This document shows positions 124 to 2,486 of a stretch of DNA of 2,486 bases, piece after piece (the first letter of the stretch is position 1; every line of letters starts with the position of its first letter). The position numbers and the translations under genes were made by a program. The notes under the pieces were generated by a model. That model did no database searches, was not told the origin of the DNA, and saw only the letters and a program-made list of their open reading frames with translations. Source of the DNA: Dictyostelium discoideum (Eukaryota); assembly GCA_000004695.1 (NCBI GenBank), contig CH709176.1:1-2486 (forward strand). Direction: 5' to 3'.

Positions 124-147
124 ACACAGCGAAGAAAAAACCACCTT
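124..147 (+). repeat. Direct repeat R, copy 1 (ACACAGCGAAGAAAAAACCACCTT)
   Basis: 24/24 identity with 2435-2458. Relatively GC-containing for this window, so chance recurrence is very unlikely. The 3' end (CCACCTTTAAA) is itself a member of the NNCCTTTAAAAT motif family. Confidence 0.85.
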
Positions 148-167
148 TAAATTCGCTTTAAATTAAA

Positions 168-185
168 TTTAAATTTGCTTTAAAG
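168..185 (+). repeat. TTTAAATTTGCTTTAAAG motif, copy 1 (+ orientation)
   Basis: 18/18 identical to 835-852. The 13-mer core AAATTTGCTTTAA also occurs reverse-complemented at 726-738 and 2457-2469. Confidence 0.8.
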
Positions 186-199
186 TCCTGAATTAAAGC

Positions 200-271
200 A
201 ATTTTAAAGGTAATTTTAAAGGTAATTTTTAAGGTTACTTTAAAATTACCTTTAAAATTACCTTTAAAATT
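200..271. repeat. 72-bp near-perfect palindrome made of 12-bp tandem units (ATTTTAAAGGTA x2-3 on the left arm, TACCTTTAAAAT x3-4 on the right arm)
   Basis: Arms 200-224 and 247-271 are exact reverse complements (25 bp). The 22-bp spacer 225-246 is itself symmetric except for 3 central pairs. The right arm continues with a further 11-mer variant to about 285. Both arms are flanked by GTCCTGA (185-191 and 309-315) in direct orientation. Confidence 0.9.
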
Positions 272-293
272 ACCTTTAAATTACCTTTTTAAT

Positions 294-337
294 CGCTTTA
301 AAAGCGAGGTCCTGAGTTAGAAGCCGTTAATTAACGG
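294..337. promoter_or_regulatory. Cluster of two short GC-anchored palindromes: CGCTTTAAAAGCG (294-306, near-palindrome) and CCGTTAATTAACGG (324-337, perfect 14-bp palindrome)
   Basis: Seen directly. CCGTTAA|TTAACGG is a perfect dyad. This is a rare GC-containing symmetric site in an AT desert, immediately next to the large palindrome. Its function is unknown. Confidence 0.5.
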
Positions 338-378
338 ATAACCCTTTTTAAATTTTTTTTTTTAATCCCCCTCAAAAA

Positions 379-447
379 TTACCAAAAGGGATTCGATCCC
401 CCGACCCTCTATCAAAGGGTAGTCTCATCAACCATTACACCATTTGA
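379..447 (-). tRNA. tRNA-like remnant or fragment, possibly derived from a tRNA-Ile(GAU). It carries an anticodon-arm-like and a T-arm-like stem-loop, but I could not build a complete cloverleaf
   Basis: Minus strand reads ...gagact ACCCT ttgatag AGGGT c GGGGG atcgaat CCC(tt) ttggtaa... This gives a 5-bp stem with a 7-nt loop that has T at loop position 2 and A at loop position 6, so anticodon GAT. It is followed by a G/C stem closing the loop ATCGAAT, one mismatch from the TTCGAAT T-loop consensus. This is the only GC island in the 5' kb. Against: the variable region would be only ~1 nt, no D-arm or acceptor pairing can be found, and GAU is an organellar or bacterial-type Ile anticodon. Confidence 0.25.
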
Positions 448-550
448 TTGCTTTGATGAAAAATTTAAAAATGATAGAATATTTTATCCCCATTTTTTTG
501 TTCTAAAATTAGATCTTTTTTATTAAAAACCTTAAATTTATGTTTAAAGG

Positions 551-615
551 AAATTTAAATTCACTTTAAATCTACTTTAAATCTACTTTAAATCTACTTT
601 AAATCCTATTTAAAA
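551..615 (+). repeat. 11-bp tandem array, about 5 copies of TC(T/A)ACTTTAAA, ending in the variant TCCTATTTAAAA
   Basis: Seen directly: tcactttaaa tctactttaaa tctactttaaa tctactttaaa tcctatttaaaa. The period is 11 bp. Confidence 0.9.
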
Positions 616-621
616 TTAATT

Positions 622-662
622 TAAAATAAATTTTAAAGGTATTTTTAAATATCTTAAAAATT
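622..662 (+). repeat. ~105-bp-spaced direct repeat, copy 1 (AAATTTTAAAGG(T/A)ATTTTTAAATATCTTAAAAATTA)
   Basis: 628-662 matches 733-767 with one mismatch (t640 vs a745). Copy 2 lacks one 12-mer unit further downstream. Confidence 0.75.
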
Positions 663-722
663 ATCTTAAAAATTACCTTTAAAATCACCTTTAAAATCAC
701 CTTTAAAATTGCTTAAAAATTT
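651..722 (+). repeat. 12-bp tandem array, 6 units: ATCTTAAAAATT x2, ACCTTTAAAATC x2, ACCTTTAAAATT, GCTTAAAAATTT
   Basis: Seen directly. The ACCTTTAAAAT units are the same 12-mer family as the right arm of the palindrome at 247-285. Confidence 0.9.
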
Positions 723-725
723 ATT

Positions 726-738
726 TTAAAGCAAATTT
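726..738 (-). repeat. AAATTTGCTTTAA core motif, reverse orientation
   Basis: TTAAAGCAAATTT is the exact reverse complement of the 13-mer core at 171-183 and 838-850. Confidence 0.7.
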
Positions 739-780
739 TAAAGGAATTTTTAAATATCTTAAAAATTACCTTAAAAATGA
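727..780 (+). repeat. ~105-bp-spaced direct repeat, copy 2
   Basis: See copy 1. Copy 2 continues ATTACCTTAAAAATGA, a one-unit-shorter version of 661-686. Confidence 0.75.
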
Positions 781-834
781 ATTTTTTAAACGCGGCTTTA
801 AATTCAATTTAAATCCAATTTAAATCAACTTTTC

Positions 835-852
835 TTTAAATTTGCTTTAAAG
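835..852 (+). repeat. TTTAAATTTGCTTTAAAG motif, copy 2 (+ orientation)
   Basis: Exact 18-mer match to 168-185. Confidence 0.8.
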
Positions 853-991
853 GTGCATTTTTCTTTGCTGTGTAATTTTTATTTAGTATATTGTTGATTA
901 ATTTCTCTGCCACTTGGTTGGAACGAAAAATTCGAAATGGATTGGATTGGAACAAATTGAAACAAATTGAAACAAGTTTAATTTAATGTTT

Positions 992-2434: not shown

Positions 2435-2458
2435 ACACAGCGAAGAAAAAACCACCTT
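2435..2458 (+). repeat. Direct repeat R, copy 2 (truncated by the window edge shortly after)
   Basis: Identical 24-mer to 124-147. The upstream flanks of the two copies differ (T-rich at copy 1, GC-richer complex sequence at copy 2), so the repeat boundary lies at or near ACACAGCG. Confidence 0.85.
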
Positions 2459-2472
2459 AAAGCAAATTTAAA
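2457..2472 (-). repeat. TTTAAATTTGCTTTAA motif, reverse orientation, adjacent to R copy 2
   Basis: TTAAAGCAAATTTAAA is the reverse complement of TTTAAATTTGCTTTAA. The longer stretch 2460-2484 (GCAAATTTAAATTTAATTTAAAGCG) is the exact reverse complement of 154-178. Confidence 0.8.
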
Positions 2473-2486
2473 TTTAATTTAAAGCG

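Follow-up and report, generated by a model that had tools for sequence, protein, structure and literature searches.

The locus

The window, meaning the whole stretch of DNA that was analysed, comprises 2486 bases with a G+C content of 20.2%. The longest open reading frame in any frame encodes at most 49 amino acids, and an exact-product look-up of six of the tiny ORFs found none on record. A whole-window Rfam scan reported no rRNA and, at E-values of up to 10, listed no tRNA; ARAGORN at default settings likewise predicted 0 tRNA genes. Runs of A and T of 15-24 nt are present together with many short tandem arrays. Among these, an A21 run abutting a T-rich run of about 40 nt (992-1053) and a (TTA)13 microsatellite (1780-1818) are of a composition typical of extremely AT-rich eukaryotic intergenic DNA. 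Dictyostelid intergenic DNA has a similar composition, and we read the window as non-coding DNA from a very AT-rich and probably eukaryotic source, perhaps a dictyostelid-like one.

Two features are central: a damaged tRNA-like sequence of 71 nt on the minus strand and a foldback-type repeat of about 750 bp that encloses it. The tRNA-like sequence and its parts are as follows.

379-449, minus strand: degenerate tRNA-like sequence, 71 nt (full-length alignment to Rfam RF00005; ARAGORN at -ps88 or lower and in -mt mode)
449-443, minus strand: 5' strand of the acceptor stem (RF00005 alignment)
432-442, minus strand: A-box-like TGGTGTAATGG, 9/11 of TRGCNNAGTGG, at tRNA positions 8-18
440-422, minus strand: D arm (RF00005 alignment)
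404-420, minus strand: anticodon arm ACCCT/TTGATAG/AGGGT with 5/5 pairs, U33 and A37 (sequence and Rfam alignment)
413-411, minus strand: anticodon GAT, read from the sequence
386-409, minus strand: variable-loop and T-arm segment GAGGGTCGGGGGATCGAATCCCTT, the sole nhmmer hit in the window (E = 0.0073)
about 387-402, minus strand: T arm (RF00005 alignment)
389-399, minus strand: B-box-like GGATCGAATCC with A in place of T54, one mismatch from the consensus GGTTCGANTCC
386-380, minus strand: 3' strand of the acceptor stem (RF00005 alignment)
379, minus strand: discriminator A (RF00005 alignment)
374-378, minus strand: TTTTT run beginning directly after the discriminator base and resembling a Pol III terminator; a weak feature, T runs being common at 80% A+T

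A near-complete cloverleaf

When positions 340-480 were scanned with Rfam, the tRNA family RF00005 aligned end to end (model positions 1-71) over 379-449, and no second tRNA was found beside it. The initial annotation had described an anticodon arm with GAT on the minus strand, a nearby T-arm-like GGGGG-ATCGAAT-CCC and a variable region that is too short. These observations hold: the arm lies at 420-404, the T-arm-like sequence lies at 402-388, and the variable region has only 2 nt. The same annotation stated that neither a D arm nor an acceptor stem could be paired, which proved to be wrong. The Rfam alignment pairs the acceptor stem AAUCAAA/UUUGGUA at 6/7 positions, with A1-A72 as the exception, and the D stem at 3/4 positions, with 12-23 mismatched, next to a G18G19-type D loop (AAUGGUU-type); the full 71-nt cloverleaf over 379-449 is obtained both with the Rfam tRNA model and with relaxed ARAGORN. 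The T stem is only 4 bp long where a standard cloverleaf has 5 bp, and the 2-nt variable region falls short of the usual minimum of 4 nt. Of the conserved tRNA nucleotides, U8, A14, the GG of the D loop, U33, A37, G53, Psi55, C56, A58 and C61 are in place, and T54 is replaced by A.

With its threshold relaxed to -ps88 or below, ARAGORN arrives at this cloverleaf too, and its -mt mode calls it Ile(gat) at 380-448. In standard mode the program uses a different register, in which the anticodon reads tga. In -mt mode two simple AT hairpins are labelled tRNA-Leu as well, so this mode is unspecific here. As a fold, the cloverleaf is poor: at -9.2 kcal/mol it is 7.8 kcal/mol worse than the minimum free energy structure (MFE, -17.0 kcal/mol), its ensemble probability is about 1e-7, and the fold of the tRNA-like sequence has a z-score of +0.22 against its own shuffles.

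With regard to the promoter-like motifs, no site in the window other than GGATCGAATCC comes within one mismatch of the B-box/T-loop consensus GGTTCGANTCC, and three sites lie within two mismatches where 0.37 would be expected by chance. The A-box-like motif taken alone is not significant (four matches against 1.5 expected), and the position of TGGTGTAATGG in the cloverleaf is the correct one.

The patch had also been called an isolated GC island. The contrast in composition stands (43.7% G+C against 19.5% in the rest of the window); the isolation holds only in part, as a second G+C-richer patch lies at 300-340. Within the latter, AGGTCCTGAGTTAGAAGCC at 307-325 on the plus strand is, by eye, identical at 16/19 positions to the generic variable-loop and T-arm sequence AGGTCCTGGGTTCGAATCC, and a related motif, GTCCTGAATTAAAGC, occurs at 185-199. 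Neither AGGTCCTGAGTTAGAAGCC nor GTCCTGAATTAAAGC was reported by nhmmer with the tRNA HMM.

Resemblance probably beyond chance

The RF00005 score of 14.8 bits is below the gathering score of 29, and the Rfam E-value is 1.1 for 141 nt and 4227 families. For the tRNA family alone, our own arithmetic from this value gives an E of about 3e-4 for the 141-nt stretch and about 5e-3 for the window. A sequence-only nhmmer HMM built from 73 bacterial tRNAs, none containing the search pattern, yielded a single hit in the window, the segment at 386-409 on the minus strand (E = 0.0073). ARAGORN at -ps88 reports this site alone in the real window, while in the controls 4/2000 dinucleotide shuffles of the island gave a hit and 400 block-shuffled windows gave 11 hits, or 0.03 per window.

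Comparison with real tRNAs points the same way. The 26-mer AGAGGGTCGGGGGATCGAATCCCTTT is identical at 25/26 positions to the variable loop and T arm of genuine bacterial tRNA-Arg(UCU) genes. More than 120 bacterial loci contain the 21-mer AGGGTCGGGGGWTCGAATCCC, all of them with T54; they are tRNAs for Val, Pro, Arg, Thr and Gly, and tRNA-Ile is never among them. In phages, BLASTN matched only the generic T arms of tRNA-Val. Since AGGGTCGGGGGWTCGAATCCC is found in bacterial tRNAs of several isotypes, it attests tRNA ancestry and leaves the isotype undecided. Three partly independent tests (Rfam, nhmmer and ARAGORN) agree, and together with the identity of the 26-mer they indicate that the sequence derives from a tRNA. 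The resemblance is real but modest. The general idea of the initial annotation, a degenerate tRNA-related sequence, is therefore supported at a sub-threshold level by Rfam, nhmmer and relaxed ARAGORN. That annotation would have taken the stems as coincidental had no covariance model given a hit in any mode; weak hits were obtained with Rfam, ARAGORN and nhmmer.

The opposing explanation, that a B-box-like 11-mer and a 5-bp hairpin came together by accident in a short G+C-richer patch, draws on the fact that every tRNA score is under its gene threshold, on an RNA fold no better than that of shuffled sequence, on the insignificance of the A-box-like motif alone and on the behaviour of ARAGORN at -ps80, where 3.9% of the island shuffles yield a 'tRNA'. 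Nevertheless, the three tests, each with a chance level of about 0.003-0.03 per window, single out the same 71 nt on the same strand, the motifs stand in the right order and spacing with conserved nucleotides in place, and the 26-mer is nearly identical to real tRNAs. Coincidence is accordingly an unlikely source of the resemblance.

The surrounding foldback-type element

The initial annotation missed the main context of the tRNA-like sequence, a foldback repeat at 124-873. The parts of this unit, and of a second copy, are given below.

124-304, plus strand: left arm, with the 24-nt tip ACACAGCGAAGAAAAAACCACCTT followed by 11-12-bp TTTAAA subrepeats and a hairpin at 195-288 (self-BLAST, tandem arrays)
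305-596, no strand assigned: unique core, with the tRNA-like sequence and, at 326-339, the perfect 14-bp palindrome CCGTTAATTAACGG (no inverted partner in self-BLAST; the outer arms pair around the core in the DNA fold)
597-873, minus strand: right arm, with the tip ACACAGCAAAGAAAAATGCACCTT (minus strand) matching 21/24 positions of the left tip (self-BLAST, tip comparison)
2435-2486, plus strand: start of a second copy, whose tip matches the left tip at 24/24 positions; the window ends inside this copy

Self-BLAST gives two inverted alignments, 120-270 with 877-723 (74% over 160 nt) and 201-304 with 697-597 (81%); in the second copy, 2435-2472 shares 90% identity with the right arm in inverted orientation. 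The unit of roughly 750 bp consists of inverted arms of about 180 and 275 bp around a unique core of about 290 bp, and arrays with a period of 11-12 bp occupy 145-184, 200-288 and 554-778. Folded as single-stranded DNA, 105-885 reaches -136 kcal/mol against -69 kcal/mol for shuffles (z = -13.5). As in foldback elements and MITEs, the terminal inverted repeats have conserved tips, there is no ORF, and the arms are made of short tandem subrepeats. As a candidate target-site duplication, the complete copy has TA at both ends if the tip is taken to start at CACAGC, a dinucleotide that is palindromic and could itself belong to the inverted repeat; the third tip (2435) is preceded by CA, not TA.

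Exact-match scans with the 24-nt tip returned nothing in viral, metagenome and prokaryotic genome collections, and those with the tRNA-like core returned nothing in viral and metagenome collections. BLASTN of 100-900 against plasmids gave no match, nor did a full-text literature search with sequence strings. As no related match was found in the viral, metagenome and prokaryotic collections, mobility and copy number are judged from one complete copy and one extra terminus. The transposon thug-S was considered as the identity of the element and rejected, because thug-S is described as a coding transposon with an intron. We know of no foldback-type family for which a tRNA-like core is a described feature. 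Galileo (PMC3573991) and Tetris (PMC4079207) are described examples for a foldback-type comparison. The present unit resembles such families in being non-coding and about 750 bp long, with inverted arms built from subrepeats, conserved tips, a unique core and another terminus nearby, and differs from them in having no known transposase relative.

Several further observations concern the element and its neighbourhood. In the left arm, 192-288 forms a near-perfect AT-rich hairpin whose arms (195-241 and 242-288) are 87% complementary. Hairpin repeats give rise to small RNAs in some protists, and this hairpin drew sub-threshold hits to miRNA precursors (mir-3938 with 42 bits against 94, mir-548 and mir-556), all with high bias. 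These hits are most likely a low-complexity artefact, and a miRNA precursor at 192-279 was rejected on the grounds that the Rfam scores are far under the gathering scores, with high bias, in a low-complexity AT hairpin. Just outside the right tip, 880-975 has about 30% G+C and includes three 10-bp tandem units, ATTGAAACAA, at 946-975; a weak B-box-like motif, TGTTCCAATCC, with two mismatches lies at 944-954 on the minus strand. Directly upstream of the third tip, 2340-2434 has about 40% G+C, matches no Rfam family and contains the A-box-like TGGTACAATGG at 2411-2421. A tRNA half beside the third tip was considered and dropped, no tRNA hit being found around TGGTACAATGG.

A second large imperfect palindrome spans 1013-1713, between a poly(T) tract at 1013-1053 and a poly(A) tract at 1690-1713. 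Its arms match at 83% (1030-1075 and 1668-1713) and 72% (1105-1205 and 1455-1554), its single-stranded DNA fold has a z-score of -5.8, and a search for a tRNA-like centre at 1260-1450 found none. It may belong to a different family of foldback-type elements.

A probable decayed tRNA gene copy

We favour, with moderate confidence, the reading that the core of the foldback-type repeat holds, at 379-449 on the minus strand, a tRNA gene copy that has decayed into a pseudogene or tRNA-derived relic. The likeness to tRNA and the damage are matters of observation, as is the inverted-repeat element, of which the window contains one more terminus. The history of deletions, the relic's transport as cargo between the arms and the eukaryotic, dictyostelid-like source are inferred.

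A working tRNA is most likely not encoded here. The score is half the gathering score, ARAGORN at default settings rejects the sequence, and to these are added A54, the 4-bp T stem, the 2-nt variable region, the mismatches at 1-72 and 12-23 and the poor fold. In real tRNAs, GGGTC forms the variable loop and GGGGG/CCCTT the T stem, a comparison that suggests a canonical 76-nt ancestor from which nucleotides were lost. About 5 nt would have been lost in all: some 4 nt where the anticodon stem meets the variable loop, for instance through slippage at GGU repeats, and one U out of the U run that separates the T stem from the 3' strand of the acceptor. T54 would have changed to A, and the 1-72 and 12-23 pairs would have become mismatched. 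In the course of events that we propose, a tRNA gene copy was captured between the arms of a non-autonomous foldback element, or already lay between them, and then decayed. The relic would have no role as a tRNA. It retains an A-box (9/11), a B-box (10/11) and a T5 run, so that putative TFIIIC binding or a short Pol III transcript may be possible.

The relic reading has points against it as well. All tRNA scores are below threshold, and the tRNA-like core is known here from a single copy. Further, the A-U-rich acceptor stem, still paired at 6/7 positions, fits an organellar-type ancestor or a retained structure better than a G+C-rich nuclear tRNA that decayed freely. Bacteria and organelles have GAU as an Ile anticodon, which is not the usual one in the nucleus. 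Indications of the parent isotype differ: GAU is read in the intact arm and tga in the alternative ARAGORN register, and the matching bacterial T arms belong to tRNAs for Val, Pro, Arg, Thr and Gly, not Ile.

Pseudogenes and relics of tRNAs are common in eukaryotes (PMC2888827). Like them, the present sequence is similar to the cloverleaf model over its full length and keeps conserved loop nucleotides, and its score is lowered by small deletions and stem mismatches. In contrast to them, it lies inside a terminal-inverted-repeat element rather than a tRNA cluster, it combines GAU with an A-U-rich acceptor, which is unusual for a nuclear tRNA, and its 14.8 bits are weaker than what tRNAscan-type pipelines normally report even for pseudogenes.

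Alternative origins and roles

The retained boxes invite a functional reading, in which the tRNA-like core would be the promoter or TFIIIC module of a working Pol III unit, much like the head of a SINE derived from a tRNA, or like an 'extra TFIIIC' site, with a predicted short non-tRNA transcript ending at T5. The spacing of the A-box and B-box is tRNA-like, the T5 run follows right after the 3' end, 44% G+C has been kept amid DNA of 20% G+C, which hints at constraint, and the pairing of the acceptor has been kept too. On the other hand, this DNA is rich in T runs, the match to the B-box consensus is weakened by A54, and the locus lacks the hallmarks of a SINE, namely a 3' tail and direct repeats at the flanks. 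Judged from motifs and composition, such a unit appears improbable.

A SINE in the strict sense, which the initial annotation had listed among the possibilities, does not fit the locus: there is neither a 3' tail nor a flanking direct repeat, T5 comes directly after the tRNA-like part, and the enclosing unit has terminal inverted repeats. With tRNA-derived SINEs it shares a tRNA-related segment with A-box-like and B-box-like motifs inside a repeated element. In SINEs, however, the tRNA head is 5', the 3' tail is poly(A) or a simple repeat and direct repeats flank the element, whereas here the tRNA part is central and the ends are inverted.

An organellar, NUMT-type source of the relic appears improbable. 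A mitochondrial or plastid trnI(GAU) could have moved to the nucleus and later been enclosed or captured by the repeat, a course suggested by the anticodon, which is the Ile anticodon of bacteria and organelles, and by the ARAGORN mitochondrial mode, which calls mtRNA-Ile(gat) at 380-448. The acceptor, A-U-rich yet paired at 6/7 positions, is as in AT-rich organelle tRNAs. Further, mitochondrial tRNAs of amoebozoans and heteroloboseans are edited at their 5' ends (PMC5041481; PMC4202320), which the 1-72 mismatch recalls. The weight of the mitochondrial call is reduced by the two AT hairpins that the same -mt run names tRNA-Leu, and the rest of the 2.5 kb is without rRNA, ORF or second tRNA.

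The two remaining readings are very unlikely. According to one, the element is a mobile foldback-type DNA element of an AT-rich protist whose conserved cargo is a tRNA-like Pol III unit, so that the G+C-rich core and the pairing of the acceptor would be under selection and the core would not be a relic.

According to the other, the window itself is organellar and holds a functional, if unusual, tRNA-Ile(GAU) beside an AT-rich, repeat-bearing control region. This is in line with the -mt call and with about 2.4 kb of non-coding, AT-rich and repeat-rich surroundings, and the mtDNA of Dictyostelium includes a non-coding stretch of some 2 kb (PMC3724811). Against it stand the 2-nt variable region, the 4-bp T stem and A54, the 7.8 kcal/mol by which the cloverleaf lies above the MFE, the lack of a neighbouring organellar gene at either end, the homopolymer runs of 20-24 nt and the repeated terminal-inverted-repeat element. 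A record of 2486 bases that ends in a repeat would also be more in keeping with a nuclear assembly in fragments than with an organelle of high copy number. The arrangement of trnI(GAU) and control region in organelles, for instance in insect mtDNA, is similar in the GAU within the loop UUGAUAG and in the AT-rich, repeat-bearing flanks; it differs in that rrnS, trnQ, trnM and nad2 are not nearby here and that the D and T loops are canonical and not of the reduced metazoan mitochondrial type. The idea of an organellar control region abutting trnI, raised initially, is thus not borne out: the window has no rRNA, no second tRNA and no ORF above 49 aa, no trnQ, trnM or nad2 follows the relic, and the relic lies between the arms of an inverted repeat.

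Two further tRNA-linked systems were considered and rejected. Dada DNA transposons insert in tRNA genes and split their target, so that a tRNA half lies beyond either end of the element, and they have no terminal inverted repeats (PMC3706591). The present element is alike in being of DNA type and physically tied to a tRNA sequence; here, unlike in Dada (PMC3706591), the whole tRNA-like sequence lies uninterrupted inside an element with long terminal inverted repeats, and no tRNA hit indicative of Dada-type halves was found in the flanks at 100-123, 874-960 and 2330-2434. A tRNA-miRNA unit of the MHV68 type does not agree with T5 directly after the tRNA-like part, and the mir-M7 hit at 1497-1561 has 20.9 bits against 91.

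Implications

For annotation, no tRNA gene should be entered at 379-449, and the repeat at 124-873 should be masked. In its present form, the finding of a probable decayed tRNA gene copy in a foldback-type element is of little consequence: relics of tRNAs are common, as are elements with inverted repeats, and this relic is most likely not a working tRNA. Its meaning would change with its relatives. If the relic matched the mitochondrial trnI of the organism, it would document a transfer from organelle to nucleus. If many copies of the element had kept the tRNA-like core, this would point to a DNA element that uses a Pol III/TFIIIC module. And should the core be conserved cargo after all, its roles may be those of a TFIIIC-bound 'safe-harbour' mark, a decoy for retrotransposons that target tRNA genes or a source of small RNAs.
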